DNA of 64,000 nt from Nannocystis bainbridge (GCF_028368995.1 NZ_JAQNDL010000004.1:416001-480000); one strand, 5' to 3'; positions 10,152 to 56,955 are shown, numbered from the stretch's first letter. Program-made: numbers and translations. The notes: generated by a model not told the origin, from the letters alone.

Positions 10152-11870
10152 TCACCGCCGCTTTGCCGCGCGTAGGCGCGCGAAGTACTCGCGGTAGGCC
10201 CGCATCGTCACGCCGGCGAACAGCAGCGTGATCGGGATGTTGACCCACAGCATCACGCCAGTGCCGACCGAGGTGATGTTGTCGAGTTCAGCCTCGGTGC
10301 TGATCCAGCCTGCGCAGGCGAGCAGGATGCTCAGGCAGTAGACGATCTTGTACGGGACGACTGACCGCCGTCCCGCCATGTAGACCATGCCCTGCTCGCC
10401 GTAATAGGCGTACGAGATCATGGTCGACACCGCGAACAGCCACGAGGCCACGGCCACGAGCCACTTCCCGAGCCCCGGGGCCACGCGATCGAAGGCGTGG
10501 CTGGTCAGCGCGGCGCCGACGTAGTCCTTGTAGACGTCGAGGCCTGCGAGCGCAGGCGCGCTGGCGAGCGGCGCCGCCGGGGAGCCCACCGGAGACCAGT
10601 CGACATAGAGGCGATCTCCCGCCCCGACAGCGACGACGCCGCTGACTCGCTGCAGGTCGCCGCCGGTGGCCGGATCGATCGGGCCGTAGCGCGCGAGCAT
10701 GAACACCCCGTCGCCGGGCCGCCAGCCGGTGCCGGTGATCGCCAGCGCCTGCGCATGTTTCTCGGGCAATGGCGTATCGGACAGGTCCCAACAGCCAGGT
10801 TCGATCTGGACCGCGGCCGGCGGGGCGGACAGCGAGGCCTCGCCGTCGCGACACCAGGCGCCGCTGGCCAGCACGACCAGCGAGGTGAGGGTGCAGACGA
10901 CGAGGGTGTCGATGAAGGGCTCGAGGCCGGCGACCACGCCCTCGCGCACGGGCTCGTCGGTCCGCGCGGCGCAGTGGGCGATCGGCGAGGTGCCCTGGCC
11001 GGCCTCGCTCGAGAACAGGGCCCGCTTCATGCCCCACACGAAGGCGGCGCCCGAGGTGCCGCCGACGAACGCGCCGGCGGCGTCGGCTGGGGAGAAGGCG
11101 GAGGCGACGATGAGGCGCAGCATCGCCGGGATGTCGGCGACGTGGACCGCGAGCACGTAGAGGGCGGCGGCGAGGTAGAGGAAGCACATCGCCGGGACCA
11201 GGGCGCCCGCGACGGCGCCGATCCGCTTGATGCCGCCGAGGATGACGGCGCCGACCAACAGCGCGAGCACGACGCCGACGGCCTGCTGCGGCACGCCGAA
11301 GCTCTCCTCGGTGACGATGCCGACGTTCCACGCCTGGAACATGTTGCCGCCGGTGAGCGTGCTGATGAGGAGGGTGATGCAGAACAGGACGCCGAGGACG
11401 CGGCCGACGGGCCGCAGCTTCTCGCTGCGCTGGGCGAGGCCGTCGTCGGCGACCCACATCGGCCCGCCGCTCGGCTCGTCCGGGTTGTCGGTGCGCCGGT
11501 ACAGCATCGACAGCGTGACCTCGGTGGTCTTGAGCGCCATGCCGGCGATGCCGACCATCCACATCCAGAACACCGCGCCCGGGCCCCCGAGCGCGATGGC
11601 GACGGCGACCCCGCCGATGTTGCCGAGGCCCACGGTGGCCGACAGCGCGGCGGAGAGGGCCTGGAAGTGGCTGATGGCCCCGGGCGCGTCGGGCTTGTCG
11701 TAGTCGCCGCGGATGATGGCGACGCCGTGGGTGAGCGCGTGGTACTGGCAGAAGCCGCTCCACACGGTGAACAAGAGGCCGGTGGCCATCACGGCGTAGA
11801 GCACGCTGTCGTGCCACAAGACCGCGTTGATGGCCGTCAGCCAGTCGTTGATGGCGATCCAGATCTCCAC
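10152..11870 (-). CDS. alanine/glycine:cation symporter (AGCS family)
   Basis: ATVGLGNIGGVA, GGPGAVFWMW, GGIKRIG, KRALFSSEAGQG, FIDTLVVCT, YYGE motifs. Confidence 0.92.
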   Translation of the reverse strand: MEIWIAINDWLTAINAVLWHDSVLYAVMATGLLFTVWSGFCQYHALTHGVAIIRGDYDKPDAPGAISHFQALSAALSATVGLGNIGGVAVAIALGGPGAVFWMWMVGIAGMALKTTEVTLSMLYRRTDNPDEPSGGPMWVADDGLAQRSEKLRPVGRVLGVLFCITLLISTLTGGNMFQAWNVGIVTEESFGVPQQAVGVVLALLVGAVILGGIKRIGAVAGALVPAMCFLYLAAALYVLAVHVADIPAMLRLIVASAFSPADAAGAFVGGTSGAAFVWGMKRALFSSEAGQGTSPIAHCAARTDEPVREGVVAGLEPFIDTLVVCTLTSLVVLASGAWCRDGEASLSAPPAAVQIEPGCWDLSDTPLPEKHAQALAITGTGWRPGDGVFMLARYGPIDPATGGDLQRVSGVVAVGAGDRLYVDWSPVGSPAAPLASAPALAGLDVYKDYVGAALTSHAFDRVAPGLGKWLVAVASWLFAVSTMISYAYYGEQGMVYMAGRRSVVPYKIVYCLSILLACAGWISTEAELDNITSVGTGVMLWVNIPITLLFAGVTMRAYREYFARLRAAKRR

Positions 11871-11995
11871 GAGCGGACGAGGGCCGCATGATGGCGGCCC
11901 GACCTGCGCGGCGCAATGACCGGGGCGGGGCCAGGCGAGCGGTCGGCGACTTTGCTGGATTAATTAAAGGAGAGGCGCGGCGGCCGGCCCGCGGC

Positions 11996-12970
11996 TCAGC
12001 CGGCCGGGGCGGATGGGGCCACCGGGGGCGGGCTCGCGGCGGCGGCGGACTGGCCGGCGGCGAGCGGCGTGGCGGGGCTCGTCATCGGCGTCGCGGGCGG
12101 GTCGGCGGCGTCTGCGGGCGCGGGCTTGCCGAGCTGCGGGGCGTCAGGACGGATCCCCGGCGGGACCTCGACGCGCTCGCCGACTGTGATGAGGCTGGCG
12201 TAGCGGAGCAGGCTGACCTTCACCAGCAGATCGGAGAAGGCCCACTCGGTCTCGAAGTTGGTGGCGACGGGGATGTCGACCGCGCCATCGGGGCCGGGCG
12301 CGGGCAGCTCGCGCGAGGGGACGCGCGTGGGTGGGCCGTAGACGCGGGTGTAGTGGGCGACGGCGTCCTCGTAGTCGGCGAGCGCGGGCGCGGGGTCCTT
12401 GGCGGTGCGCTGGTACGAGACGTGGCGCAGCGGATGATCGACGCTGTCGAACACGAACAGCAGGCGGCCCTCGGACCGCGGCCGCGGGCGATCGGTGAGC
12501 TGCTCGCTGCGGGTCTTGGGGCAGCTGAAGCGGACCTGCGGGTTGGCCTCGCGCTTGCTCTTGCGATCGAGCCACGAGGCGGCGGTGACAGCGTCCTCGC
12601 CGCGGGCGCGGGCGTCCTCGAGGCGCTTGCGCTCGACCTTGCGGCGACCCTCCATGCTGGCGCGGATCGAGGTGTCGCCGCAGGCGAGGCCGAGGCGCGC
12701 GGCGAGGGCCTCGGCGTCGGCGACGTGGTGGCGGCCGACGTCGGTGTGCATGGCGACGGTGACGGGCGCGCGCGGCCCCGGGCGCGGATCTTTGAACTCG
12801 AAGCGCCACTCCTGCTCCCTGCGCGCGAACAGGCCGGCGAGGCCGGAGCCGGTCGCGGTCGCGGTCGGCTGGGTGGGCTCCGCGGCGGGCTCGGGCCGCT
12901 GTTCGCCAGCGCCGCAGGCGGCGAGGCCGAGGACGCAGGCGAGAAGGGTGAGGCGCGAGGCGAGCAGCAT
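11996..12970 (-). CDS. hypothetical lipoprotein
   Basis: MLLASRLTLLACVLGLAAC lipobox; start trimmed downstream of the repeat tract. Confidence 0.7.
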   Translation of the reverse strand: MLLASRLTLLACVLGLAACGAGEQRPEPAAEPTQPTATATGSGLAGLFARREQEWRFEFKDPRPGPRAPVTVAMHTDVGRHHVADAEALAARLGLACGDTSIRASMEGRRKVERKRLEDARARGEDAVTAASWLDRKSKREANPQVRFSCPKTRSEQLTDRPRPRSEGRLLFVFDSVDHPLRHVSYQRTAKDPAPALADYEDAVAHYTRVYGPPTRVPSRELPAPGPDGAVDIPVATNFETEWAFSDLLVKVSLLRYASLITVGERVEVPPGIRPDAPQLGKPAPADAADPPATPMTSPATPLAAGQSAAAASPPPVAPSAPAG

Positions 12971-13003: not shown

Positions 13004-13297
13004 GAACTTCGGGACAGGTCGATGAGGATCGAGATGAACTTCGGGACAGGCGCGGGTGCGGTGGCTCGGAGGGGGAAGTGTCGCGCGACGCTTCGGAGGC
13101 GGAGGTTCGAGGTGAACTTCGGGACAGGTCGCGCGGGAGGCCGGATGAACTTCGGGACAGGTCGCGCGGGAGGCCGGATGAACTTCGGGGCAGGTCGCGC
13201 GGGGCTTGGGGCGGGCCGGAGATCGGGGGAACTTTGGGACAGGTCGCGCGGGGACGCGGGGCCGGGGGCGGGTGTACTTCGGGACAGGTCGCGCGGG
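13004..13297. repeat. 7 dispersed copies of GAACTTCGGGACAGGTC(GCGCGGG)
   Basis: Copies start at 13004,13036,13114,13147,13180,13229,13274. Confidence 0.9.
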
Positions 13298-13314
13298 TGG
13301 CTGCGGAGCGGTGG

Positions 13315-14220: not shown

Positions 14221-14266
14221 GGGGCGGCTGCGCGGCGAACGGGCGTGCCCGAATCGTCCGCGTAGC

Positions 14267-14360
14267 GGACATGCTCGAAGGGGCATGGCCGAACGAGCAT
14301 GCGCGAAGGGACATGCTCGAAGGGTCATGGCCGAACGAGCATGCTCGAAGGGACATGCTC
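14267..14360. repeat. 14-bp-period GGRCATGYCC array (7 units)
   Basis: CATG at 14270,14284,14298,14312,14326,14340,14354; convergent junction. Confidence 0.92.
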
Positions 14361-14430
14361 CGACAGCGAGGGGCCGGCCGCCCGGGGAGGCGGCCGGGTG
14401 TCCCGAGGGACAGGCGCGGGCTCGTGTCGC

Positions 14431-18310: not shown

Positions 18311-18600
18311 GGCGCGGAGGCGCGGAGGCTCGCGGCCGCGCTGGGGCGCGGAGGCTCGCGGCCGCGCTGGGGCGCGGAGGCGTCGCAGAGGCGCGGAGGC
18401 GACGCAGCCGCGCAGAGGCGACGCAGCCGCGCAGAGGCGCGGAGGCGACGCAGAGGCGACGCAGCCGCGCAGAGGCGACGCAGCCGCGCAGAGGCGACGC
18501 AGCCGCGCAGAGGCGCGGAGGCGACGCAGAGGCGACGCAGCCGCGCAGAGGCGACGCAGCCGCGCAGAGGCGACGCAGAGGCGCAGAGGCGACGCGGCGC
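18311..18600. repeat. compound tandem repeat of GCAGAGGC / GCGGAGGC / GAC / GCAGCCGC modules
   Basis: Recurrent 19-bp GCAGAGGCGACGCAGCCGC unit, preceded by a duplicated GGCGCGGAGGCTCGCGGCCGCGCTGG. Confidence 0.9.
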
Positions 18601-18619
18601 GACGCGCTTGCGCGCGCGT

Positions 18620-18769
18620 GAGCATGTTCTTTCGGACATGTGGAATCCGAGCGGGCGCACACGGCATGTTCGAGAGAACATGTAGTTCCAGACATGTCTC
18701 TATGGACATGTCCTCGAAGGCATGACCTATCGGGCATGACCTATCGGGCATGACCGATCGGGCATGTCA
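18620..18769. repeat. 14-bp-period GGRCATGYCC array (11 positions)
   Basis: CATG at 18623,18637,18665,18679,18693,18707,18721,18735,18749,18763; 18651 is degenerate but phase is kept. Confidence 0.93.
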
Positions 18770-21226
18770 TACGGCAGGGGCGTGTGCTGTCAGCCAGGCG
18801 GCGATCTCGCGCTGGCGGCGAGGGTTGCGGATGGCGTGGGCGTCGCGCTCGGCCTGGCGGGCGAGGGCCAGGGCGCGGTCGCGCTGGCTCGGTTCGTGGT
18901 CCCACAGGGCGCGGGCGAGGGCGAAGTGGGCGATGGTGCGGATCAGCGGCTGCTGCGAGCGCTCGGCCAGCGAGTGGGCGCGCTCGAGGTCGTCGAGGGC
19001 GCGGGCGATGGCGCCGCGGCCGAGCTGCAGCATGCCGGTGGCGGCGAAGTACTCGGCGTAGTCGAGGCGGTCGTTGCCGAAGGTGGCGATGATCTGCGGC
19101 AGGGCCGGCTCGAGCAGCCGTGCGGCCTCGTCGAAGTGGCCGAGCTCGAAGTGGGCGAGGCCGAGGTTGGCGTGGGCCATGCACGCGAACGGGTGGCGCT
19201 CGCCGAGCAGGCTGTCGAGCCCGGCGCTGGCCTCGTGGAGGACGGCAGCGGCCTCCTCGACCCGGCCGATCGAGCGCAAGGCCTCGCCGAGGCCGATCTG
19301 GGTGATCCGGATCGGCAGCGGCTCGTCGGGCGCGGTGCGCTGGCGCAGGGCGATGCCGCGGCGGTACAGGTCCTCGGCCTCGGCCAGGCGGCCCTGGGCG
19401 GCGCGCGAGTTGGCCAGATTGTTGAGGAGCTCGGCCTCGATGCCGATCTCGGGCGGGCGCCGGGCGATCAGGGCCCCGGCGATCGCTGCGGCGCGCTCGG
19501 CGGCACCGAAGTCCTGGAGGCCGTAGCCCTGGACGTGGACGTCGGTGACGAGGGCGCGAAGCTCGATGGCGTCGTGGCCGGCGCGGATGCTGGTGAGATA
19601 GGCGGCCCACAGCGAGCTGGCGGACTGCTGGGGCTCGCCGGTGTCGCTGAAGATCCGCCCGCGCCAGAACAGGGCCTCGGCGAGCAGCGGCGGGTAGTCG
19701 GTGGCCTCGGCGGCGTGGATGGTGCGCTCGACGAGGGCGACGGCGCGGTCGATCTGACCGGCGAGGAACAGCGCCTCGACCTGGGCCAGGTCGCGCTGCA
19801 GCAGCTGGACGCGGGCGGCGACGGCGGGGTCGCTCGGGAGGCCGAGGCGGCGCTGTTCGTCCATCAACGCCGTCGGGTCGCCGCACGAGGCGACCGAGCG
19901 CAGCCCGGCGACCGCCTGGGCGGCGTTCATCACGGTGTTGCGATCGCCCTCGGCGAGCACGTCGACGAGCGCGTCGAGCTCGGCCCGGCGGCGCTGCAGG
20001 CAGTGCATCTGCAGGTCGAGCGCGGCGCTCGAGCGCTCGCCGGCGCGGTGGGCCTCGCAGGTGCGCACGTGCAGCTCGGTCCACTCGGCGGCGTGGGCGT
20101 CGAGGTCCTGTCGCGTGCGCGCGACGGTGTCCGCGGCGAACACCAGGCCGGTCGCCAGCATGGCGCGCTCGACCGCGGCGCTGCGGCTGTCGTCCCACAC
20201 GCCGACGAGGTGCTCGGCGGCGTCACGGCAGCTGCCGGCGGCGCCGGCCTGGACGAACGCGATCGCGGCGGTGCCGAGGCCGGCCACGGCGAGGGCCCAG
20301 CGCATGCGTCGGCGGCCGCGATCGGGCGCGGGCGCCAGCTCGGCCAGCAGGTCGTGCATGGTCGGGAAGCGCTGGTTGGGATCGCTGTCGAGGCCGCGCA
20401 GCACGGCCCGCTGGACCTTGGGCGGCACCGGGGTGCGCGCGGGGATCGGGACGCGCTCGCCGAGCAGGACGCTGCGGCTGACCTCCTCGATGGTGCTGCC
20501 GGGGAACGGGCGGTAGCCGAACATCGCCTCGAACAGGGCCACGCAGAAGCCGAACTGATCGGTGCGCGCGTCGGTCGGCTCGCGCAGGAACTGCTCGGGC
20601 GCCATGTAGGCGGGGGTGCCGATCAACGAGCCGGCGGCGGTCATGCGCAGGATCGATTTGCCCGACTCCGAGATCGTGGCGCTGAGCTCGTCGCCGCCGA
20701 GGCCGACCGGCAGGGCCAGGCCGAAGTCCATGACGCGGACGCGGCCGTCGCCGCCGATCATGAAGTTGTCGGGCTTGACGTCGCGGTGGACGATGCCGGC
20801 GCCGTGAGCCGCGGCCAGGCCGCGACCGGCCTCCACGAACACCGCGAGGATGTCGGACCACGAGCGCGTCTGCTCTTCGAGCCAGGTGGTGAGGGTGCGG
20901 CCGTGGACGAACTCGAGGGCGATGAAGATCTGGCTGTTCCACTCGCCGACGTCGTAGATCTGGATGACGTTGGGGTGCGACAGCTGGGCCAGCGCCTGGG
21001 CCTCGCGCAGCAGGCGGGCGCGGCCGGGGAGGTCGCCGCTGAGCTGGCGACGGACCAGCTTGACGGCGACGCGACGGTCGAGCAGCTCGTCGTAGGCGCT
21101 GTAGACGACGCCCATGGCGCCCTCGCCGAGGCGGCTGAGGACGACGTAGCGGCCGAACCGCAGCGCGTTGGCGTCAGGCTCGCTCGAGCCCGCTCCGCCG
21201 CCGGTCGCCGTGGTCTCGTCGGCCAT
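18767..21226 (-). CDS. serine/threonine protein kinase with TM segment and TPR repeats
   Basis: LGEGAMGVVY, VAVKL, HRDVKPDN, DFGLA, GTPAYMAPE; C-terminal TPR-like LNNLA/HANLG repeats. Confidence 0.95.
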   Translation of the reverse strand: MADETTATGGGAGSSEPDANALRFGRYVVLSRLGEGAMGVVYSAYDELLDRRVAVKLVRRQLSGDLPGRARLLREAQALAQLSHPNVIQIYDVGEWNSQIFIALEFVHGRTLTTWLEEQTRSWSDILAVFVEAGRGLAAAHGAGIVHRDVKPDNFMIGGDGRVRVMDFGLALPVGLGGDELSATISESGKSILRMTAAGSLIGTPAYMAPEQFLREPTDARTDQFGFCVALFEAMFGYRPFPGSTIEEVSRSVLLGERVPIPARTPVPPKVQRAVLRGLDSDPNQRFPTMHDLLAELAPAPDRGRRRMRWALAVAGLGTAAIAFVQAGAAGSCRDAAEHLVGVWDDSRSAAVERAMLATGLVFAADTVARTRQDLDAHAAEWTELHVRTCEAHRAGERSSAALDLQMHCLQRRRAELDALVDVLAEGDRNTVMNAAQAVAGLRSVASCGDPTALMDEQRRLGLPSDPAVAARVQLLQRDLAQVEALFLAGQIDRAVALVERTIHAAEATDYPPLLAEALFWRGRIFSDTGEPQQSASSLWAAYLTSIRAGHDAIELRALVTDVHVQGYGLQDFGAAERAAAIAGALIARRPPEIGIEAELLNNLANSRAAQGRLAEAEDLYRRGIALRQRTAPDEPLPIRITQIGLGEALRSIGRVEEAAAVLHEASAGLDSLLGERHPFACMAHANLGLAHFELGHFDEAARLLEPALPQIIATFGNDRLDYAEYFAATGMLQLGRGAIARALDDLERAHSLAERSQQPLIRTIAHFALARALWDHEPSQRDRALALARQAERDAHAIRNPRRQREIAAWLTAHAPAV

Positions 21227-26244: not shown

Positions 26245-28224
26245 ATGCCTCGCCTGCGCCTCGAGTGGATCGCCGTCGCCTCGCTGACGGCGTGCGGTGC
26301 GACGCCCACCGCCGACACGGCCGCGGGTCGGCCGGTGTCGGCAAGCCCGGCCACGCCGGTGACCGCGAGCGCCCCGGCGCCGCTCGAGACGACGGCGCCG
26401 CCGGCCGCGGCAACGCCGGCTCCGACGCCGCTACCGCTGCCGACCGCGGCCGATGCCGGGACCTGTCCGGCCGCCGACGATCGGGCCTATGGGATCTTGG
26501 TGTCACCGCAGCGGCCGGCGGTCGGGCAGCCGATGCGGGTGCTGGCGGCGACGCTGGCGGGCGAAGAGGCGCTGGCGCTGCGGGTCGAGGGCGGGGCTGA
26601 CCCTTCGGACATGCGCTTTTGGACAGGCGCTCCGGCGGCGGCGCTGGCGACGGTGACGCCGGACAGGGCGGGCGAGCTGACGATCGTCGCGGGCCGCGGC
26701 GGGGTCGGCAAGGTCTGCCTCAAAGTGAAGGTGCGCGAGCGGGCCGGGCGCGACGCACCGCCGCCGGCGAGCACGGCGGTGTGGCCGAGCCAGCGCGCGT
26801 GGGACAGCGGGGAAGAGGCGCTGTACTCGGCGTGGGTGCGGGCGCTGTTCCACGCCGAGCCGGGCGTCGACCTGGCCTACACGGCGTTCGATCAGGTGAC
26901 GCGCGATCCGGTCCGCAACATCCTTCATGACGCGTTCGCGTGGGGCGAGGACGCGGCGCCGCAGCAGGGCGGGCTGCACATGCGGCCGGACTGCGCCGAC
27001 ACGCCGTACTTCCTGCGCGCGTACTACAGCTGGAAGCGGGCGCTGCCGTTCGCTTTCCGCGGCTGCTCGCGCGGGGGGCCGGGCAAGCCGCCGCGCTGCG
27101 GCGAGACGACCAGCAACCTGGCGGCGCCGGGTGGGTCGGGGCCGCAGCCGGGGCAGCTCGGGGCGGTGCAACACTTCATGCGGCGCACGCTGGCGTGGGG
27201 GGTGCACACGGGCAACGGGCGGGTGGCGCTGGGCGACGAGCGCAGCGACCTCTATCCGGTGCGACTCGATCGCCGGTCGCTGCGGCCGGGCACGGTCTAC
27301 GCCGATCCTTACGGGCACATCCTGGTGCTGGTGGAGCTGTTCGCCGGCGAGGGCGGGCGGCCGGGGGTGCTGTACGCGGTCGACGGTCAGCCCGACGGCA
27401 GCATCACGCGCAAGCGGTTCTGGGAGGGCAACTTCCTGTGGAACCCGGACCCGCTGCTCGGCGGATCGGGGTTCAAGAATTTCCGGCCGATCGCGATCCG
27501 TGACGGGGCGGCGACGCCGCTGACGGATGCCGAGATCGCGGCCCACGGCGACTACGGCGACCTGTCCCAAGAGCAAGGTACGCTGGCGGGCCCGGCGTTC
27601 TACGACCGCATGGAGGCGATCGTGTCGCCAGGCGCGCGCGACCCGTTCCTCGCCCAGGAGGAGGCGGTCGCGGCGCTGTTCGAGCAGGCGCGAGTGCGGG
27701 TGACGTCGGTCGGCAACGGTGAGGCGTTCTTCAAGCAGAGCCCGGGGGCGACGATCGCGATGCCGGAGGGGTTCGCGGTGTTCGAGACGACGGGCTCGTG
27801 GGAGTCGTACTCGACGCCGGCCCGCGACCTGCGGCTGCTGATCGCCATCGACGTGGTCCGCGACTTCGCCGACAAGGTGCGACGTCAGCCGGCGGTGTTC
27901 GCGGCGGAGAACGACCTCGAGGGCGTGGTGCGCCGGCTCGGCGAGGCGCGCGACAAGCTGCTCGCCGATCCGAAGTTCCGCTTCGAGTACGTGCGCAGCG
28001 ACGGATCGAAGTGGCCGCTCGGGCTCGGCGAACTGGTGGCCCGGGGGCGCGCGCTCGAGGTCGCTTACAACCCGAACGACTGCCCGGAGCACCGCTGGGG
28101 CGCGCCCGCCGGCAGCGAGGAGGCGAAGCCTTGCTCGCGCCGGGCACCGAACGAGCAGCAGACGAAGATGGAGCGCTATCGGGAGTGGTTCTCGGCGCGC
28201 AAGCGGCCGGCCCGCGGGACCTGA
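26245..28224 (+). CDS. hypothetical lipoprotein with possible NlpC/P60-like Cys-His peptidase domain
   Basis: VASLTAC lipobox, Pro/Ala/Thr linker, DCAD and LRPGTVY..GHILV motifs. Confidence 0.7.
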   Translation: MPRLRLEWIAVASLTACGATPTADTAAGRPVSASPATPVTASAPAPLETTAPPAAATPAPTPLPLPTAADAGTCPAADDRAYGILVSPQRPAVGQPMRVLAATLAGEEALALRVEGGADPSDMRFWTGAPAAALATVTPDRAGELTIVAGRGGVGKVCLKVKVRERAGRDAPPPASTAVWPSQRAWDSGEEALYSAWVRALFHAEPGVDLAYTAFDQVTRDPVRNILHDAFAWGEDAAPQQGGLHMRPDCADTPYFLRAYYSWKRALPFAFRGCSRGGPGKPPRCGETTSNLAAPGGSGPQPGQLGAVQHFMRRTLAWGVHTGNGRVALGDERSDLYPVRLDRRSLRPGTVYADPYGHILVLVELFAGEGGRPGVLYAVDGQPDGSITRKRFWEGNFLWNPDPLLGGSGFKNFRPIAIRDGAATPLTDAEIAAHGDYGDLSQEQGTLAGPAFYDRMEAIVSPGARDPFLAQEEAVAALFEQARVRVTSVGNGEAFFKQSPGATIAMPEGFAVFETTGSWESYSTPARDLRLLIAIDVVRDFADKVRRQPAVFAAENDLEGVVRRLGEARDKLLADPKFRFEYVRSDGSKWPLGLGELVARGRALEVAYNPNDCPEHRWGAPAGSEEAKPCSRRAPNEQQTKMERYREWFSARKRPARGT

Positions 28225-30094: not shown

Positions 30095-31819
<1,725 letters not shown>

Positions 31820-31821
<2 letters not shown>

Positions 31822-31885
31822 GCAGGGCCTTTCAGACAGGTCGTGAAGGACAGGTCGTCGAGGACATGGCCGACTGGGCATGTCC
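31820..31885. repeat. 14-bp-period array (5 units)
   Basis: CAGG 31823, 31837, 31851; CATG 31865, 31879; convergent junction. Confidence 0.88.
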
Positions 31886-31900
31886 TTTGCGACTCACGGG

Positions 31901-33349
31901 TCAGGGCAGCAGGGCGTCGGCGAGCACGTCGAGCAGGGCGCTGTCCTGGGTGTCGCCGGCCAGCTCCCAGAACATCGCGCCGCCGAGGGCCTTGGCGGTG
32001 ATGTAGTCGGTCTTGCGCTGCATCGACTCGGGGTCGTCGTAGGTGATGAAGAGGTCGTCGGCGGCGTCGTAAAGCCACGGGACCGCGGCCTCGGCGTGCC
32101 AGAAGCGCTCGAGCTCGGGCTCGTAGTTGGCGACGATGTCGTGGTAGTCGACGATGCCGGGCTCCCAGGTGCCGGGGCCGGCGCCGCTGAAGGTCGAGTA
32201 GAGGCCGTCCTGGCCGCCGCTGGCGCCGGCGAAGCTGCGGCCGTAGAACGGCACGCCGAGCACCAGCTGATCGGGCGCGACGCCGGCGGCGAGGATGGCG
32301 GTGACGGCGGAGTCGTCGCTGAGCAGGGCGTTGTTCGGGTCGGGATCGTCGGCCGGGCTGTAGAGCGCGGCGTTGTGGGTGGTGGTGCCCATCCACGGGC
32401 CGGCGAAGTCGTAGGCCATGAGGTTGATCCAGTCGACGCTGGCGGCGATGCCGGGGAGATCGAGGTTGGCGAGGTTGCCCGGTCCGGCGGGCGCGGCGAT
32501 GGTCAGCAGGTAGTCGGCGCCGTCTTCGGCCCCGGCGGCGTCGAGCTCGGTCCGCAGGGCGGCCAGGAGCGCGCTGTAGTGCTGGCCCTCGAGCGGCGAG
32601 GCGGGGAACTCCCAGTCGATGTCGACGCCGTCGAACCCGTAGTCGCGCATGAACTTGACGCACGAGGCCGCCAGCTTGGCCCGGCCCTGCTCGGTGGCGG
32701 CGTTGGGGGCGAAGTTGGTCGACCAGGTGTAGCCGCCGACCGAGATGAGGGTGCGCAGGTGGCCGTGCTGCTGCTTGAGCTGGTGAAGCTGGTGGAAGCT
32801 GCCCTTGAGCGGGGCGTTCGGGTCGTCGCCGTCGTAGACCTTCTCGATGTCGGCGTAGCTGTCGCCGAGCACGCACTCGCCGGCGGGGCTGAGGTTGGCG
32901 AAGGCGTAATTGACGTGGGTGAGCTTGGCGGCCGGGATGTCGCTGACGTGGTAGTCGCGGTCGTAGACGGCCCAGGCGGTGAAGTAGCCGACGATCCGGC
33001 CGGCGCCGCGGACGGGATCGCCGGTGGTAGTCGTCGTGGTGTCGATGTCGGTGGTGTCGGTGGTGTCGGGGCCGGTGGTGGTCGAGGCGACGGTGGTGGT
33101 GCCCGGGTCGCCGGTGGTCGGCGCGGTGGTGCCGGTCGGATCGCCGCTGTCGCTGTCGGTCGCGGTCCCGCTCGTCCCGGAAGTCGTGCCGGCGGTGATG
33201 ACGGGATCGGTGGCTGTCGAGCCGTCGGTGGTCGCGGGTGAGCCTGTCCCTTCGGACATGGTCGAATCGCCCTGTCCCCCGGGACATGCAGCGACGAGCG
33301 CGGCGGTCAGCAGGAGCGCGGGGACGGGGCGGGGTGGAAGCGACGGCAT
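31901..33349 (-). CDS. GH18 chitinase lipoprotein with Thr-rich linker
   Basis: LVAAC lipobox; THVNYAF, ISVGG, FDGVDIDWE (DxDxE), MAYDF, GVPFYG, GGAMFWE. Confidence 0.93.
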   Translation of the reverse strand: MPSLPPRPVPALLLTAALVAACPGGQGDSTMSEGTGSPATTDGSTATDPVITAGTTSGTSGTATDSDSGDPTGTTAPTTGDPGTTTVASTTTGPDTTDTTDIDTTTTTTGDPVRGAGRIVGYFTAWAVYDRDYHVSDIPAAKLTHVNYAFANLSPAGECVLGDSYADIEKVYDGDDPNAPLKGSFHQLHQLKQQHGHLRTLISVGGYTWSTNFAPNAATEQGRAKLAASCVKFMRDYGFDGVDIDWEFPASPLEGQHYSALLAALRTELDAAGAEDGADYLLTIAAPAGPGNLANLDLPGIAASVDWINLMAYDFAGPWMGTTTHNAALYSPADDPDPNNALLSDDSAVTAILAAGVAPDQLVLGVPFYGRSFAGASGGQDGLYSTFSGAGPGTWEPGIVDYHDIVANYEPELERFWHAEAAVPWLYDAADDLFITYDDPESMQRKTDYITAKALGGAMFWELAGDTQDSALLDVLADALLP

Positions 33350-36085: not shown

Positions 36086-37252
36086 CTAAAGACAGCCGAA
36101 GCGCAGCCGGGCGATCGCGCCCGCGTGCAGCCGATCACAGGCGGCGGGGCAAAGCTCGATCGCCCGGTGGGTGTCGTCGCGCCAGCGCCAGGCCCAGCGA
36201 TCGTCGCAGTCGGGGTCGGCGCGGTGCATGCGACCGTCGACGTCGAGGGCGACGAGGTTCGGATAGTCGGGCGCGGCGTCGATGCCGATCCGGCAGGCGT
36301 CGACCTGCTCGGCCAGGGGGGCCAGGCGCTCGCGCAGACCGGCCAGCACCTGCGGCAGCGCGGCCGTGTCGCGCAGGTGGAGGTAGTGCTCGGGCCCCGC
36401 TTGCGCCGCGCCGCCGGCCAGCGCGAGCGCGTTGAAGTACTCGTGCGGGTTGACGTCGTCGATCATGCTGTCGCCCGCGAGCAGCGGGGCGAGCACGTCC
36501 ATGACGCTGATGCCGACGACGACCGTCGGGATGCCGCTGGCGAAGCTGGCCTCGACCAGCGGGTAGACCTCGCCGTCGAGCTTCTCGGCGATGTCCTCTT
36601 TGATCTTCGGCTTGGTCGGGCAGTTCGGCGGGTTGTCGCTGACGAGGACGATGGCGCGCTGGCGCAGCAGGCCGTCCTCCAGCGGCGGGAACAGGTCGGA
36701 CCAGGCCTCGCGCAGCGGGTTCTCGCCGATCGGCGGCGAGGCGATGTCCTCGGGGACAGCGTCGAGGATGGCCGCCGAGACGTCTTCGGTGCCGAATGGG
36801 ACCCGCGAGTTGTCGTTGAGGTTGCAGAAGCCCTGCTCGGAGATCAGGGTCGGCGTCGGGAACACGACCGCGGCGAAGTCGATGCGATCGGCGAACTCGG
36901 GCACGAGGGTGTGGACCAGCGCGACCAGGCCGTCCCAGCGGCTGAGGCCGGGCGGGTCGACGGCCTGGGCGCAGCGCTCGCGCTCGGTCGGATCGTCGAG
37001 GCAGCGGCGCATCGACTGCGAGTGGTCGAGCAGCAGGGCGACCTGCGGGCGCACGTCCTGCAGGTCGAAGGTGAGGCCGCTGCAGCGGCGCTCGACGGCG
37101 CACACGCCGTCGTCCTGGCACGGCAGGTCGGGGCCGCAGTCGGCGTCGGTCTCGCAGCGCTCGCCCCAAAGCGCCTGTCCTTCGAAACATGACCCGAAGA
37201 CCAGGGCCGTGGCGAGGCAGGCGAGGCGCGCGAGGCCGGCCGCGCGCGCCAT
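36086..37252 (-). CDS. VWA-domain lipoprotein, divergent paralog 3
   Basis: VFGSC lipobox, Cys-rich CETDADC..C..C module, DHSQS MIDAS variant, VSDNPPNC, ELCPAAC..FGC. Confidence 0.8.
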   Translation of the reverse strand: MARAAGLARLACLATALVFGSCFEGQALWGERCETDADCGPDLPCQDDGVCAVERRCSGLTFDLQDVRPQVALLLDHSQSMRRCLDDPTERERCAQAVDPPGLSRWDGLVALVHTLVPEFADRIDFAAVVFPTPTLISEQGFCNLNDNSRVPFGTEDVSAAILDAVPEDIASPPIGENPLREAWSDLFPPLEDGLLRQRAIVLVSDNPPNCPTKPKIKEDIAEKLDGEVYPLVEASFASGIPTVVVGISVMDVLAPLLAGDSMIDDVNPHEYFNALALAGGAAQAGPEHYLHLRDTAALPQVLAGLRERLAPLAEQVDACRIGIDAAPDYPNLVALDVDGRMHRADPDCDDRWAWRWRDDTHRAIELCPAACDRLHAGAIARLRFGCL

Positions 37253-37884
37253 CAGTGGCCCTTCCAGGTCCGGCGCTTGCCGGTGTCGAGGTGGACGAAC
37301 TGGCTGACGGGGTAGTAGCCGACGCCGCCTTTCCACCGCTTGAGCGCGTACTTGTAGAGCTTGTCGGCCTTGACGCCGCGCAGCGAGAAGTCGATCGCCT
37401 GGCTGCGCGCGTGCTGGCTGTCGCGCGCGACCTCGTGGCCCTTCTTGGTGAGCATGAGGTTGAACTTGGGGTGGCGGAAGCCGCTGATGACGCGGACCTC
37501 GCCGGCGCCGAAGTGGTCGGCCGCGGCGACGACCCCGGCGATCAGCTCGGCGGGGTGGCCGGCCGGCTCGTCGGTGAAGCGGCAGCGAAAGAAGCTCGCC
37601 AGCGCGCCGGGAGGGTGGGGGCCGCGCAGCGGCATGACCTCGAGCGTGTGAAGGTGACGGGCGAACAGCACCGGGTCGGCCTGGTCGCCGGCGCGTGGGG
37701 AGTCGCGGCAGACCGGGTCGATGAGACATGTTCCATCGGACATGTCCTTGGGGCAACATGCGCGCCGGGCCGGCGGCGGGGCCCGCTTGGCGGCGAGGTA
37801 GGCGGCCTTCTTGTCGTCCTCGTGCTCGCCGGTCGGACCGACGGCGGGGCCGAGCAGCGCGGCGACGAGGAGGACGACCTGCAC
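37252..37884 (-). CDS. YcbK/DUF882 family (peptidase M15-like) protein
   Basis: VISGFR, SQH..SQAID, GGVGYYP, FVHLDTG. Confidence 0.85.
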   Translation of the reverse strand: MQVVLLVAALLGPAVGPTGEHEDDKKAAYLAAKRAPPPARRACCPKDMSDGTCLIDPVCRDSPRAGDQADPVLFARHLHTLEVMPLRGPHPPGALASFFRCRFTDEPAGHPAELIAGVVAAADHFGAGEVRVISGFRHPKFNLMLTKKGHEVARDSQHARSQAIDFSLRGVKADKLYKYALKRWKGGVGYYPVSQFVHLDTGKRRTWKGH

Positions 37885-42801: not shown

Positions 42802-42808
42802 TCGTTCG

Positions 42809-43810
42809 ATGGCGGCCGAGCTCGGCGGGCTCGCGTGGCCCGCCCGCGTACAGATCTGGGACGCCGCGTTGGCCGCCGTGCGCGGCTATTTTCGCGAGGC
42901 GGGCCTGCGCGAGGTCAGCACGCCGGTGCGCGTGCCCGCGGTCGCGGTCGAGCCGTTCATCGAGCCGATCGCCGCGCCGCCGGGCCTGCTGGCGACCAGC
43001 CCCGAGCTGGCGATGAAGCGGCTGCTGGTGCGCGGCAGCGGGCCGATCTTTCAGATCGCCCACGTGTTCCGTCGCGCCGAGGTCGGCGATCGTCACAGCG
43101 AAGAGTTCCACCTCGTCGAGTGGTACCGCCTCGGCGCCGATCTCGATCCGCTGCTCGCCGACGTCGAGGCGCTCGTAGCCCGGGTGTTCGCTGCGACAGG
43201 TACGAACGGACATGTCCCGAAGACCTGGCAGCGCGCGCGCTTCGGCGACGTGGTGACCGCGACCTGCGGCGCGCGCCTGCGCGGCGACGAGGGGCCCGAC
43301 GCCTTGGTGGCCGCGCTGCCGCCGGCGCTGGCCGCCGAGGTGGTCGCGGCGCTGGTGCCGGCCGCGGGCGCGGACCCGGCGGCGCGGACCCTGATGGCGT
43401 GGACGGCTTTCTTTACTGCCTGGTCGGACATGTTCTTCGAGACATGGCTGAAAGGACATGAAGGTACGCACCTGGTCGACTTCCCGGCGCCGCTCGCGGC
43501 GCTGGCGGTGACCGACCCGGAGCGGCCGTGGCTGGCGCGGCGGGCCGAGTGCCACGTCGGCGGGCTGGAGATCGCCAACGGCTACGTCGAGCTGCGCGAC
43601 GCCGACGAGCAGCGGCGTCGGTTCGCGGCGGTCAACGAGCTGCGGCGGGCCCACGGCTCGGCGGCGCTGCCGATCGACGACGAATTCCTGACCGAGCTGC
43701 CCGGGCTGCCGCCGTGCGCCGGGATCGCTCTCGGCCTCGACCGCCTGATCACCCTCGCAGCCTGCCGCACGCGCCTCGCCGACGTCTCGCTCGCCCTCGC
43801 TGGCGGGTGA
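42809..43810 (+). CDS. epmA: EF-P lysine aminoacylase (EpmA/GenX)
   Basis: TSPELAMKRLL, FR..E.GDRHSEEF..EWY, EIANGYVEL, GLPPCAGIALGLDRL; follows efp. Confidence 0.9.
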   Translation: MAAELGGLAWPARVQIWDAALAAVRGYFREAGLREVSTPVRVPAVAVEPFIEPIAAPPGLLATSPELAMKRLLVRGSGPIFQIAHVFRRAEVGDRHSEEFHLVEWYRLGADLDPLLADVEALVARVFAATGTNGHVPKTWQRARFGDVVTATCGARLRGDEGPDALVAALPPALAAEVVAALVPAAGADPAARTLMAWTAFFTAWSDMFFETWLKGHEGTHLVDFPAPLAALAVTDPERPWLARRAECHVGGLEIANGYVELRDADEQRRRFAAVNELRRAHGSAALPIDDEFLTELPGLPPCAGIALGLDRLITLAACRTRLADVSLALAGG

Positions 43811-46396: not shown

Positions 46397-46430
46397 TCAG
46401 CCGACCCCAACGAGAAGACAGGCATCCGAC

Positions 46431-47168: not shown

Positions 47169-47695
<527 letters not shown>

Positions 47696-48410: not shown

Positions 48411-48418
48411 CCGACTCG

Positions 48419-52555: not shown

Positions 52556-52579
52556 GTCGTCTCCGCGACGCGCTCGACG

Positions 52580-52614
52580 AAGAAGGGGCCGCCCTGCGCG
52601 GCCCCTTCTTTTTT
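52580..52614 (+). terminator. intrinsic terminator
   Basis: AAGAAGGGGCCGC-CCTGC-GCGGCCCCTTCTT then TTTT. Confidence 0.88.
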
Positions 52615-52693
52615 GCGCGTGCAACGTCCGACGCGCTGCCCGAGCGAAGCGCCGGTTACGGCGCTTCGCTTCACGGCGGTCGCGTCTCGCGGT

Positions 52694-53437: not shown

Positions 53438-53601
53438 CGGGGGACAGTAACGCGAACCCCGGGGGGCGACCAGACGTGGCGGCCTGGCGGGCGCGACGGG
53501 ACAGGCGGTGCGGCGCCCAGGAATTTTCGCGCACCGCGGGCAGGCCGCGCCGAAACCCGCCGGCCCTCGCCGATCCGTGGTATGCATCTGCCTCGCGCCC
53601 G

Positions 53602-54498
53602 ATGTTGCGGCTCACGCTCCACCTCGTGCTCGCGGCCAACTTCGCCGTGAGTCCCGTTGCCGGATCCAAGGACAAGCCAGCGTCCAACTGCCGCAACCCG
53701 AGCGCCCTCTACGAAGAGGGCCTCAAGGACTACGATCAGAAGTTCACCAGGGCCGCGATCGAGAAGTTCGAAGCGGCCCACCGGTGCTCGAAGAACCCGC
53801 TGATCCTCTACAACATCGGCCTGGCGTACCAGCGGTTGTACGACGCCGAGCAGCAGCCTGACCTGCTGCACGCGGCCAAGAAGGCGCTGGTCGAGTACGT
53901 CGACGCGATCGAGAAGGACCCGACGCTCGGCGCCGACCCCGAAGAGGTGAAGCCGGCGCTGGCCGAGATCGACGCGGAGCTCGAGCGGATCCGTCCGCCC
54001 GAGGTCGCGCCCGAGCCCGAGCCGCTGCCGGCGGCGCCCGATCCGGTCGACGATCCGGGCCGGTCGAAGCGGCTGCTCGGCATCGGGTTGATGAGCGGCG
54101 GCGGAGCGCTGACGGTGGTGGGCGTGGCGGTTGGCGCCGTGTTCGCCAGCAAGGGCGGCAAGCTGCACGACCAGCTCAACGGTGAGGGCGCCGTCTACGA
54201 CCAGCTCGAGGCGGGCGGCTGCGGCCTGGCACAGGCCGACGACGTGCAGGGCGCCGACACGATGGCGTGCGACGCCCTCCGCGGCCGACGCGAGGACCTC
54301 CGCAGCGACGGCGTACGCGCCAACGGGGTGGCGTTCGGGATGATGGCGGTCGGCGTGGTCGGCCTCGGCCTCATCATCGGCGGCGCGGTGGCGTTCGCCC
54401 AGGGCAAGCGCGCCACGTCCGAGTGGGAGTCGAGCCAGCGCGCTCGCGTCCGGGTCCTGCCGACGATGGGCGGGCTGCTGCTGCAGGGGCGCTTCTAG
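53602..54498 (+). CDS. hypothetical exported TPR protein with C-terminal hydrophobic segments
   Basis: LYEEGLKDY, ILYNIGLAY TPR; C-terminal GGLLLQGRF typical of myxobacterial proteins. Confidence 0.7.
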   Translation: MLRLTLHLVLAANFAVSPVAGSKDKPASNCRNPSALYEEGLKDYDQKFTRAAIEKFEAAHRCSKNPLILYNIGLAYQRLYDAEQQPDLLHAAKKALVEYVDAIEKDPTLGADPEEVKPALAEIDAELERIRPPEVAPEPEPLPAAPDPVDDPGRSKRLLGIGLMSGGGALTVVGVAVGAVFASKGGKLHDQLNGEGAVYDQLEAGGCGLAQADDVQGADTMACDALRGRREDLRSDGVRANGVAFGMMAVGVVGLGLIIGGAVAFAQGKRATSEWESSQRARVRVLPTMGGLLLQGRF

Positions 54499-54612
54499 GC
54501 GGCTCCGCGCTGGCCGCGACGACGCGATTCGCTCGTGGCAGCTTGATGACGTGATTCGCCGGCCCGGCGCCCAGCCGTTCGGCTCGAGCGTCCCACGTCG
54601 TGGCGGCCCTGC

Positions 54613-54692
54613 TTGGATGTCTCGAAGGACATGCCCATGTCGACATGTCTTCGTGGACATGCCACGAAGGACATGTTCTCACAGACAGGCTC
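54613..54692. repeat. 14-bp-period array (6 units)
   Basis: GATG 54616, CATG 54630, 54644, 54658, 54672, CAGG 54686; convergent junction. Confidence 0.9.
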
Positions 54693-56010
54693 AATCTCGC
54701 CGCGGCTCGGCGGTCGGCTCGCCGCGCGGCAGCAGCAGGGTGAAGCTGGACCCGCGGCCGCTCTCGCTGTCGACGACGATGTCGCCGCCGAGCAGGCGGG
54801 CGAAGCGGCGGCTGATGGCGAGGCCGAGGCCGGTGCCGCCGAAGCCGTGGCGGGCGTCGTGGACCTGCGAGAAGTCGCGGAACAGCAGCGAAAGCTTGTC
54901 GGCGTCGATGCCGATGCCGGTGTCGGCGACGCAGAAGGCGATGAACTCGCGGTCGCCCTCGCGGGCCGCTCGCACCGCCAGCTCGACCTCGCCGCGCGCG
55001 GTGAACTTGACCGCATTGCTCAGCAAGTTGAGCAAGATCTGGCGCAGCTTGGTGGCGTCGGTCGTGATGTCCCCGAGGCCAGGTTCGAGCACCATCCGCC
55101 AGCGCAGCGGCTTGCCGCGCAGCTGCGGGCGCACGGCCGCCTCCATCTCCTCGGCCAGCGGCGCGACCGCGACCGACTCGCGCCGCAGCTGCGGGACGCC
55201 GGCCTCGAGGCGCGCGAGGTCGAGGATGTCCTCGATGACGGCGACGAGGTGGCGGCCGGAGCGGTCGACGGTCTGGATGTCGGGCAGGAGCTGGCCGAGG
55301 CCGGCGGCGGTGGCCTCCTCGCGCAGCATCTCGGCGCAGCCGAGGATCGCGTTGAGCGGCGTGCGCAGCTCGTGGCCCATGTTGGCGAGGAAGAGGTCCT
55401 TGGCGCGCGCCGCGGTGACGGCCTCGGCGCGGGCGCGGGCGAGGTCGTCCCGCTGCTCGGCGAGCTCGCGCTCGCGGCGATCGAGCTCGAGGCGGACGGC
55501 GGCCTGGCGCGCGAGGGCGAGGAGGTCGCGCCGCTGGTCCTCGTCGAAGCGGCGCGGGACGACATCGAGGATGCACAGGCCGGCGATCGCCCGGCCGGCC
55601 TCGCCGGGCAGCGACACGCCGACGAGGCTGCGCAGCCGCGGGCAGGCGGCCACCAGCGGATGCGCGGCGAACCGCGGGTCGGCGGCGAGATCTTCGATCT
55701 CGAGCGGCTCGTCGCGCGCGAGCACGGCGGTACAAAAGGACAGGTAGCGTGAGGCGTCGCCGTCGCCGAGGCCGAAGCTGCCCGCGAGCCACACGGCGTC
55801 CTCGTCGGCGAGGGCGAGCAGGACGATCGGCGCGGCCAGCAGCGTGGCGGCCAGACGCGTGAGATCGGCGAAGGCCTGCTCGCGGTCCGAGCCGACGGGC
55901 GCACGCTCCGGCGCGCCCGCACGCGGGACCTCGAGCTCGGACGACGCGACCAACTCCACGGACCTACGATACTCGCCGTCGCGAGCGCAGCAAGCCCTCT
56001 TCATCGCCAT
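54691..56010 (-). CDS. GAF-domain histidine kinase
   Basis: SFC..DPRF..GLCILD GAF; FLANMGHELRTPLN, NLLSNAVKFT, DTGIGI, GGTGLGL. Confidence 0.93.
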   Translation of the reverse strand: MAMKRACCARDGEYRRSVELVASSELEVPRAGAPERAPVGSDREQAFADLTRLAATLLAAPIVLLALADEDAVWLAGSFGLGDGDASRYLSFCTAVLARDEPLEIEDLAADPRFAAHPLVAACPRLRSLVGVSLPGEAGRAIAGLCILDVVPRRFDEDQRRDLLALARQAAVRLELDRRERELAEQRDDLARARAEAVTAARAKDLFLANMGHELRTPLNAILGCAEMLREEATAAGLGQLLPDIQTVDRSGRHLVAVIEDILDLARLEAGVPQLRRESVAVAPLAEEMEAAVRPQLRGKPLRWRMVLEPGLGDITTDATKLRQILLNLLSNAVKFTARGEVELAVRAAREGDREFIAFCVADTGIGIDADKLSLLFRDFSQVHDARHGFGGTGLGLAISRRFARLLGGDIVVDSESGRGSSFTLLLPRGEPTAEPRRD

Positions 56011-56088
56011 CTGCTTCGTACGGCTGTCCGCGGCCAGCTGTTCGAGCGATCGGGCGATCGAAGGTTCACGCGACGACTGTCGCAGTCG

Positions 56089-56955
56089 TCAGAACTTGCC
56101 GAGGCGGACGCCGAGAGTGCCGGTCAGGCCGCTGAGGATCCGGTCGCTCGGCCCGCTCCACGGCTGGGCCACGGCGAAGCGATAGCCGCCCGAGAGCACC
56201 AGCCGGAGCACGCGGGTCAGCGCGAACGACAGCCCGAGCTCGGGTTCGGCGACGAACATGGCGGCACGATTGACGCAGCGATCGAGCCGCTCGTCGTTGA
56301 GGCAGACCCGGCCGCCGCCGATGAGCGCGCCGATTTGGAGCGAGAAGAAACGGACCTGCAACAACGCGACGGCGAGCGTGACGCCGGCGTACTGGGTCCG
56401 CATGTTGAAGGTGCGGTCGTCGGAGCGCTGGGCCGGCAGCGGGGTGGCGAGCGCGTGGCCGGCGGCGCCGAACATGAAGCGCTCGTTGACGATGACGGCG
56501 AAGTCGGCGCCGAGCATCAGTCCGGGCGAGCGTCCGAAGCCGGTGAGCTTGAAGTTAGGGGCGATGTAGGCGCCGACCTTGGAGTCGCGGACGATGAGCG
56601 GCTGACCCTCGGTCCACAGCGGCCCGCGCTTGGGCTCGCGCTTGGCCTTGACCTCGGCCTTTTCGCCTGGCTTTGGGGACATGGTCTCAGGGCCAGGTTT
56701 TGAAGGAGCGGAGGTGTCGGGCGGCGCCGGGGTGGCCACGCCGGAGGAGGGCGGCTGCCAGGCCGGGACGCTGGCGGGCTGGGTGAGATCGGGCGGGTTG
56801 CCGTCGACCGGCTGGGGCGCGGGCATCGGCGCCAGCGAGGTGGAGCCGCTGCTGCTGGAGTGCGGCGAGGGCGGGGCCTGGACGCCCGCGGCCGCGCGCG
56901 CCGGGACGGACAGGAGGGCGAGCGCAGCGAACACGGAAATTGCGCGGGGGGCCAT
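56089..56955 (-). CDS. hypothetical outer-membrane beta-barrel-like protein
   Basis: Signal peptide, Pro-rich linker, alternating beta strands, C-terminal GKF. Confidence 0.65.
   Translation of the reverse strand: MAPRAISVFAALALLSVPARAAAGVQAPPSPHSSSSGSTSLAPMPAPQPVDGNPPDLTQPASVPAWQPPSSGVATPAPPDTSAPSKPGPETMSPKPGEKAEVKAKREPKRGPLWTEGQPLIVRDSKVGAYIAPNFKLTGFGRSPGLMLGADFAVIVNERFMFGAAGHALATPLPAQRSDDRTFNMRTQYAGVTLAVALLQVRFFSLQIGALIGGGRVCLNDERLDRCVNRAAMFVAEPELGLSFALTRVLRLVLSGGYRFAVAQPWSGPSDRILSGLTGTLGVRLGKF

Follow-up and report, generated by a model that had tools for sequence, protein, structure and literature searches.

Phased 14-bp palindrome arrays between and within genes of Nannocystis bainbridge

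A 64-kb stretch of the genome of the soil myxobacterium Nannocystis bainbridge (11.05 Mb, 71.5% G+C, 90.5% complete), analyzed at its full length and called the window here, contains tandem arrays of a short palindromic unit, some of them inside protein-coding genes. Each unit consists of a 10-bp palindrome, GGRCATGYCC, and four weakly specified bases, and the units follow one another head-to-tail at 14 bp; the consensus is identical to its reverse complement, and the units have no strand polarity. An initial annotation of the window had cited nine in-gene patches of this motif and proposed that they were overprinted on tolerant parts of proteins and reflect a DNA-level binding code. Here, we show that the cited patches are genuine members of a lineage-specific, genome-wide family of 14-bp units, that about a tenth of the arrays in this family lie in real coding sequence, and that the in-gene arrays of the window are kept under nucleotide-level constraint, rare A/T-ending codons included.

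Genes and in-gene arrays of the window

Genes were called from the GC1>GC2<GC3 pattern with a crude caller based on G+C at third codon positions (GC3), and those of the window were checked with Pfam, NCBIfam and alignment to four syntenic relatives. Arrays were scored with a position weight matrix derived from 2518 units of intergenic arrays, in which the core was softened with probabilities set by hand from the observed variants; the threshold for a chain of units was a score sum of 14. The cited patches and the genes that hold them are listed below, with chance expectations given as the counts expected in the window's ~54 kb of coding sequence (CDS).

10152-11870, minus strand: alanine/glycine:cation symporter (AGCS) gene (Pfam Na_Ala_symp, E 2e-113)
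10749..10804: AGCS array, four units, one with an exact CATG; sum 26, 0.12 expected, strong
26245-28224, plus strand: lipoprotein gene, lipobox SLTAC
26605..26632: lipoprotein array, two units encoding SDMRFWTG; sum 20, 0.3-0.4 expected, weak alone
30088-31821, plus strand: PAS/HisKA/HATPase histidine kinase gene
31445..31472: kinase patch, two weak units (31450/31464) between HisKA and HATPase_c; sum below 14, more than one expected
31901-33370, minus strand: GH18 chitinase gene (Pfam GH18)
33238..33293: chitinase array, four units running from the lipobox Cys (LVAAC) through the linker; sum 29, 0.08 expected, strong
36086-37252, minus strand: VWA-like lipoprotein 3 gene, its true start at 37252 overlapping the YcbK stop
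37169..37210: VWA3 array, at the lipobox VFGSC; sum 22, 0.3-0.4 expected, weak alone
37252-37884, minus strand: YcbK/DUF882 peptidase gene (Pfam Peptidase_M15_2)
37722..37749: YcbK array, two strong units encoding KDMSDGTC; sum 35, 0.03 expected, strong
42806-43810, plus strand: EpmA-like gene (best family TIGR00462, 241.7 bits, below the 286.9 cut-off)
43192..43219: EpmA-1 array, two units encoding ATGTNGHVPK; sum 21, 0.3-0.4 expected, weak alone
43424..43479: EpmA-2 array, three strong CATG units and one weak unit encoding SDMFFETWLKGHEGT; sum 39, 0.02 expected, strong
56675..56702: patch cited for an outer membrane protein (OMP), in a divergent start region outside the OMP gene; sum 17

The 14-bp phase dominates the distances between CATG cores. 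Within the window, 40 CATG pairs lie 14 bp apart, 29 at 28 bp, 24 at 42 bp and 14 at 56 bp, with none at 13 bp and one at 15 bp; across the genome 3736 pairs are spaced by 14 bp, against 72 by 13, 262 by 15 and 79 by 16. Chaining of in-phase CATG cores yields 2074 chains genome-wide, 954 of which hold at least three. Scored by matrix, the genome contains 1122 arrays, 944 outside gene calls and 178 inside, and 125 of the latter are robustly coding on both flanks, although ~84% of the genome is called coding. All 25 core positions cited in the initial annotation are spaced as it had stated. Only 13 of them are exact CATG, the rest being CAGG or CCTG (10), AATG (1) and GATG (1). The looser definition of the core is nonetheless justified because the same variants are the commonest at gaps within arrays: CCTG (53), CATT (51), CAGG (43) and AATG (38) lead the 286 non-CATG cores found at in-phase gaps, with CATA/TATG also among the most common.

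Seven of the nine patches lie in real CDS with the frames intact, as had been claimed, and two do not bear out the description. The kinase patch is indistinguishable from chance. The OMP patch falls where coding phase switches strand, and a minus-strand open reading frame of 197 aa starts within it (ATG 56682-56680); neither of the flanking genes has a Pfam or NCBIfam match. The CATG at 56680-56683, part of a two-unit array, reads ATG on both strands, the plus-strand ATG being in frame with the downstream gene, and relatives carry in-frame indels flanking it.

The remaining arrays occupy diverse settings. The AGCS array sits in a lineage-specific loop of ~105 residues found only in the nearer members of the family, and the YcbK array in a Cys-rich segment past the signal peptide. 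The lipoprotein array is kept in four relatives, the EpmA-1 array in close relatives and the chitinase array in three; the chitinase gene is missing in a further relative (G010), whose alignment skips from 31821 to 33355 with no counterpart of this region. The EpmA-like gene follows efp (TIGR00038, above cut-off) after 4 bp (region 42241-43810), and the nearest named records of its product are from Nannocystis species (86-90% identity). The VWA protein at 33441-34676 and VWA-like lipoprotein 3 are paralogs (E 1e-26). In NCBIfam the latter also matches CglB, a lipoprotein of adventurous gliding, but weakly (E 1e-4) and far below cut-off; possibly all three tandem VWA lipoproteins are of the CglB type. 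The chitinase and VWA3 each use the rare codon TGT for the lipobox Cys, placed within a motif core, in the contexts GCA TGT CCC (33278-33293) and TCA TGT TTC (37188-37200), respectively. Two VWA paralogs carry SACPGG after their signal peptides (approximately 34620-34640 and 35980-36000, located at the protein level). Motif and lipobox may be co-adapted.

Arrays written into coding sequence

Phased units are far more frequent in genes than codon usage predicts. CDS interiors (8.19 Mb) contain 1039 pairs, 244 triples and 84 quadruples of units scoring at least 6 bits at a spacing of 14. Five synonymous-codon shuffles, the control named in the initial annotation, gave 69-73 pairs, 1-4 triples and 0-1 quadruples at this spacing, and the shuffle is a conservative control because the amino-acid sequence that it preserves was itself shaped by the arrays. 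Off phase, the real CDS has 9 pairs at spacing 13 and 10 at 16, no quadruples at either and no triples at 13, 15 or 16. In the window, six in-CDS chains have a sum of at least 20, against 0.44 expected (Poisson ~6e-6, calculated by hand). With in-phase triples at 244 in real genes and 1-4 in shuffled ones, we give an origin by chance or as a codon-usage artefact next to no probability: taken individually, the kinase patch is compatible with it, and the lipoprotein, EpmA-1 and VWA3 arrays are marginally so, but as a set the in-gene arrays are real and statistically overwhelming.

The arrays also leave a mark on codon choice, and that mark is conserved. A or T occupies 39 of 107 third positions in the window's patches (36%) and 913 of 16429 elsewhere (5.6%; Fisher p 1e-21), in line with the initial remark that the patches use A/T-ending codons rare in their surroundings; genome-wide, the 125 robust in-CDS arrays have a GC3 of 0.63, compared with 0.95 and 0.96 for the sequence on either side. 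Of third positions with A or T, all aligned relatives (three or four) share 27 of 39 inside arrays compared with 374 of 913 elsewhere (Fisher p 0.0007), and of those with G or C they share 62 of 68 compared with 12238 of 15516 (p 0.011). Every in-CDS array of the window is present in the relatives that have the gene, and no relative-specific in-CDS array was found in the syntenic 64 kb, apparent mismatches between relatives being indels that shift the mapped coordinates. Among five species, no gain or loss of an in-CDS array was found in the window, while the spacers turned over. The writing of these arrays predates the divergence of the six array-rich species. Peptides encoded by arrays recur in unrelated proteins, with DMS, GTGP or TCP, and (G/E)HV cycling every 14 residues; these are the proteome-level footprint of the DNA motif.

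How the arrays entered genes can be read from orthologs with and without them. We aligned EpmA-2 codon by codon in ten orthologs. The six array-rich genomes read TCG GAC ATG TTC TTC GAG ACA TGG CTG AAA GGA CAT where a more distant genome of the same genus reads TCG GAC CTC CAC CTC GAT CCC TGG CTG TCA CGG CAG; the first 16 codons are equal in length and conserved W-S-D and P-W-L anchors lie within the patch. Across the gene, the best in-phase score for three units reaches 27.5-36.7 in the array-rich six, and the four others score -13.0 to 2.9. The AGCS array comprises 18 codons (ATC through CAT), eight of them A/T-ending, and the six array-rich genomes do not differ at any of them; in array-poor genomes of the genus, G/C-ending codons specify a similar peptide of the same length. 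In the kinase patch, GAC CTC of the orthologs became GAC ATG without a change in length. YcbK departs slightly from this pattern: an ACATGT seed (Thr-Cys) is already present in two of three aligned array-poor genomes, to which the array-rich clade has added another unit, exactly 14 bp upstream, with a net loss of two codons. Thus, the ortholog alignments called for at the outset give same-length substitution for EpmA, AGCS and the kinase, as overprinting predicts, and a two-codon difference for YcbK. Paralogs extend the comparison to 36 of the 125 robust arrays, the other 89 having none that spans the array: 24 are of the same length, seven have a gap of 4-9 residues and five a gap of at least 10 residues. 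Judged from these alignments, substitution is the main route by which in-CDS arrays arose.

The same comparisons bear on whether a mobile element, akin to a REPIN or a MITE (a miniature transposable element with inverted repeats), landed in genes in three-unit multiples. We consider this very improbable. Insertion would account for the five paralog gaps of at least 10 residues and, at first sight, for the prevalence of three-unit arrays, which at 42 bp keep the reading frame and make up 87 of 125 robust in-CDS arrays compared with 308 of 944 outside gene calls. We rejected this excess as a sign of in-frame insertion: it looks like a size gradient, because two-unit in-CDS arrays, the 1039 pairs above, are commoner still. 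EpmA, AGCS and the kinase, moreover, equal their orthologs in length and share flanking codons inside the patch, two thirds of the paralog comparisons show no length change, the units have no evident terminal inverted repeats or target duplications, and a search of the genome for a Y1 transposase of the REP-associated (RAYT) type (PF01797) returned 0 matches.

The initial annotation had placed the overprinting in tolerant loops. The window mostly agrees, its patches lying in a lineage-specific loop, in variable segments and in the linkers of lipoproteins. Across the genome the claim holds only in part: Pfam was run on 12 further array-bearing genes (13 arrays, whose coordinates were mapped by hand onto the envelopes), and seven of the 13 arrays are in or beside domain envelopes. 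Five are inside, in ClpB D2-small, Mur ligase M, STAND AAA_16, the AAA lid of a sigma-54 activator and the N-terminal domain of Lnt; one overlaps a paired CXXCH domain; and one is at the HxxEH region, directly before the matched stretch of a peptidase M16 domain. The remaining six are located between domains or belong to a protein without a Pfam match. In the ClpB-like gene the units span the GARPL motif, with GCA and CGT codons.

Placement in the genome and taxonomic spread

Arrays concentrate at the 3' ends of genes, a placement that was outside the picture drawn initially. Arrays of at least three units occupy 414 of 1408 convergent junctions (29%), 404 of 5051 tandem junctions and 58 of 1408 divergent junctions (4%). 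In convergent spacers they lie a median of 16 and 22 nt from the two stops, and in tandem spacers 25 nt past the upstream stop and 165 nt ahead of the next start. Chains of at least four CATG are distributed similarly: 282 are in convergent spacers, 189 in tandem and 17 in divergent ones (spacer totals 325, 942 and 518 kb, respectively), 68 touch the 3' edges of genes, 27 touch 5' edges and 24 are deep in CDS. Intergenic arrays of the window illustrate the arrangement.

14265..14362: seven units in a spacer, repeating at a higher order every 42 bp
18618..18771: longest array of the window, ten CATG units between convergent genes
31818..31887: five units in the convergent spacer of the kinase (stop at 31821) and the chitinase (stop at 31901)
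54625..54694: five units that directly adjoin the stop of a minus-strand gene (54691-56010)
57877..57960: six units that take up the space separating two convergent stops (57865 and 57965)
61117..61262: two arrays, of three and five units, between convergent stops at 61101 and 61272

Several intergenic arrays interrupt the BLAST alignments with relatives, and the orthologous spacers of most relatives carry arrays too, which differ in unit number and sequence. Relatives have four to five units of different sequence at 54625..54694, and unit number also varies at 57877..57960. In relative G005, ~965 bp separate the kinase and chitinase genes, compared with 111 bp here (31800-31910), and no array is present there.

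Three other repeats were seen in the window. A 19-bp tandem repeat (18304-18595, ~11.8 copies that form a higher-order period of 76 bp, 95% identical) adjoins the ten-unit array in the spacer after a gene ending at 18310. A 26-bp tandem repeat (46228-46387, 6.2 copies, 98% matches) lies between genes 45297-46085 and 46431-47168, and alignments with three of four relatives break at it. Repeats of 33, 45 and 23 bp at 13113-13306 have a unit that contains GGGACAGGTCG, a one-off variant of the 14-bp palindrome, and may represent a second repeat family around the same core.

The distribution along the chromosome and along genes disposes of two simple ideas. Regular spacing, with in-gene arrays filling gaps between the others, is ruled out since array spacing is over-dispersed (coefficient of variation (CV) 1.52) and in-CDS arrays lie nearer to another array than random CDS positions do (median 2.9 versus 4.0 kb, p 0.004). 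That arrays in packed operons overprint the 5' end of the gene that follows agrees with chitinase, VWA3 and YcbK, but is contradicted genome-wide by the position deciles of the 125 robust in-CDS arrays: 8, 21, 13, 15, 22, 16, 13, 13, 3 and 1. The last fifth of genes is nearly devoid of these arrays (the 3 and 1 of deciles nine and ten), and it is possible that arrays near a gene end turn extragenic through a new stop codon.

Among the genomes counted, only six close Nannocystis-like ones have the family in abundance. This genome has 1670 phased CATG triples and five close relatives have 1005-1162, compared with 2-62 in five other genomes of the genus, which are fragmented assemblies in which repeats may be under-assembled, and 0-4 in 20 genomes of other genera; a reversed-pattern control gave 0-2. 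No description of the 14-bp family was found in the literature searched, in which subscription journals were poorly covered, and the motif string retrieved only papers on p53 response elements, a coincidence of sequence. Public sequencing runs with matches were soil, root and rhizosphere contigs from metagenomes and metatranscriptomes, in small shares, with no RNA-seq from culture among them.

This lineage-specific burst raises the possibility that the arrays spread by molecular drive and serve no function in the cell. Biased transmission or repair would favor alleles that match the motif, for instance through motif-biased DNA uptake or motif-directed mismatch correction, point changes would accumulate, and slippage would alter unit number in spacers. 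Such a process would also fit the turnover of unit number in spacers, the proximity of in-CDS arrays to other arrays, and their writing by substitution at variable positions, which is reported for uptake sequences in coding regions (Findlay & Redfield 2009, PMC2817400). However, arrays are ~26 times rarer per base in CDS interiors (125 per 8.19 Mb) than in spacers (706 per ~1.8 Mb), whereas that study places 34.5-65% of uptake sequences in open reading frames. Uptake sequences are scattered singly and have no 14-bp tandem phase. In addition, old, maintained sites fit better than active drive, because no in-CDS array of the window was found to be gained or lost while spacers turned over. We regard drive as quite unlikely.

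A proposed sequence-specific reader and its rivals

Do the arrays act as DNA or as RNA? Their location directly past stop codons and their enrichment between convergent genes would suit REP-like (repetitive extragenic palindromic) elements that form tandem hairpins in transcripts, as terminators lacking a U-tract or as stabilizers of 3' ends against exonucleases. In-gene copies would then be by-products, weakened and tolerated, or would serve tightly packed operons as internal attenuators. Consistent with this, some arrays fold very strongly on both strands, at -72.2 kcal/mol (57877..57960, z -9.8) and -67.1 kcal/mol, with z about -10. Other observations favor recognition of sequence. Would-be paired positions show no covariation, with mutual information of 0.002-0.023 bits within units and between adjacent or farther units, and A-C combinations at these positions are not avoided. 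The four-base words of the spacers are diverse, with little strand bias and no favored loop sequences; tetraloop words are in no clear excess on the sense strand (TTCG 21 versus CGAA 16, GAAA 19 versus TTTC 13). Of 11 terminator-like matches in 44000-63900, where 7.5 are expected by chance, none coincides with an array, and Rfam identified no family in the whole window. Finally, the CATG cores and rare codons of the window's in-CDS patches persist in the relatives, yet these patches fold no better than shuffles (z -0.26, -0.61 and -1.6). We consider a role in RNA possible but doubtful.

A DNA-level binding code, as first proposed, is made plausible by the lack of covariation and of favored loops and by the weak folds in CDS; a reader at the RNA level is possible. 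The best available account of this indirect evidence is a sequence-specific reader, in its simplest form a dimeric DNA-binding protein bound side by side. We favor, at a little less than even probability, a model in which the arrays are sites for a sequence-specific factor bound at 14-bp pitch that marks or insulates gene 3' ends. The palindrome would be the recognition site of this factor, probably a dimer; neighboring molecules would bind side by side at 14-bp pitch, three units amounting to 42 bp or about four helix turns; the occupied arrays would mark or insulate the ends of genes; and the in-gene copies would be the same sites, fitted around what the protein tolerates.

Several observations weigh against this model. 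At equal unit number, intergenic arrays fold better than in-CDS arrays (mean z for three and four units -3.25 and -4.53 versus -1.89 and -2.66; p 2e-7 and 2e-5), as hairpins acting in transcripts might, although in-CDS arrays also have somewhat lower motif scores and a palindromic consensus leads to hairpins in any case. The sense strand has a slight excess of G in the 5' half and of T in the 3' half, which either tolerance of G-U pairs in RNA or transcription-linked deamination would give. A search for a candidate binder in the 20 genes flanking divergent-region arrays, which encode enzymes, ankyrin proteins and proteins of unknown type, identified no DNA-binding Pfam family. The gene calls behind the placement figures were checked by Pfam and orthologs for the window genes and 12 other genes only. 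Lastly, only 29% of convergent junctions are occupied and the arrays are clustered (CV 1.52); they are not a universal end signal.

The family was compared with known systems. REP elements occur in enterobacteria and pseudomonads, and their clusters bind gyrase and IHF and stabilize upstream mRNA. They are described in one report as short, palindromic, high-copy units with a consensus that are extragenic and often present several per site (PMC12306157). Like them and the bacterial interspersed mosaic elements (BIMEs) they build, the arrays are short, palindromic, of high copy number and shared consensus, and located at gene 3' ends and between genes. Unlike them, the arrays keep a strict 14-bp head-to-tail phase, their unit is itself a perfect-type palindrome without polarity, and they show no compensatory maintenance of stems; nor was the transposase of REPIN-RAYT systems found in the genome, a control search having been positive in 6 of 14 known genomes. 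REP elements rarely reach into genes; of the 1122 arrays here, 944 lie outside gene calls and 178 inside, with 125 of the latter robustly coding. The point about sites filled and empty at equal length (EpmA, AGCS and the kinase, with the two-codon loss in YcbK) and insertion in only 5 of 36 paralog tests likewise separates them from MITE-like elements.

Uptake sequences offer a second parallel. The uptake signal sequences (USS) of Pasteurellaceae and the DNA uptake sequences (DUS) of Neisseria are reported to be single and dispersed, to be written over coding DNA through point changes that favor residues of low conservation, and to leave motif-encoded peptides (PMC2817400). The in-CDS arrays resemble them in being written by substitution at variable positions and in their recurring peptides, and differ in forming 14-bp tandem arrays that are strongly depleted in CDS and concentrated past stop codons. 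The arrays share with intrinsic terminators a stable, G+C-rich, self-complementary sequence past stops, usable in both directions between convergent genes, and are set apart from them by the absence of a U-tract, the many units, the sequence-specific core and the presence inside genes. A further parallel is offered by operators that small repressors bind cooperatively, such as the met boxes of MetJ and the heptads of omega repressor, in which two to about seven abutting copies of a short unit, palindromic or alternating in orientation, occur at a handful of promoters, each unit presumably holds one dimer and cooperativity comes from the fixed pitch. The arrays match these operators in having abutting short palindromic units at a fixed pitch. 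They depart from them in number, with more than 1000 arrays, and in avoiding divergent, promoter-only spacers.

A more specific, and unlikely, proposal is that a clade-specific protein might polymerize on the phased palindromes and turn them into boundary elements at the ends of genes, acting as a two-way roadblock to RNA polymerase or as a barrier that keeps supercoils from spreading between convergent genes. If this were true, selection for boundaries in packed operons would have rewritten coding sequence, including that of conserved domains such as ClpB D2-small, and more than 100 sites would bear, on top of the genetic code, a second code that is read by a protein.

As a rule, short genomic repeats are either extragenic palindromes that a transposase disperses or uptake signals that biased recombination disperses. 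The 14-bp family fits neither class, because it is a strictly phased tandem palindrome, without a RAYT gene, at more than 1000 loci in one myxobacterial clade. It provides a natural and well-replicated case of dual coding, with more than 100 sites at which protein sequence and a nucleotide signal constrain each other and where rare codons, substituted into working genes, are held fixed across species. In practical terms, the arrays skew codon statistics and give rise to recurring peptides; at the 56680 site, an array touches a start codon. The family also gives a handle for finding a sequence-specific reader in bacteria that have almost no molecular genetics.

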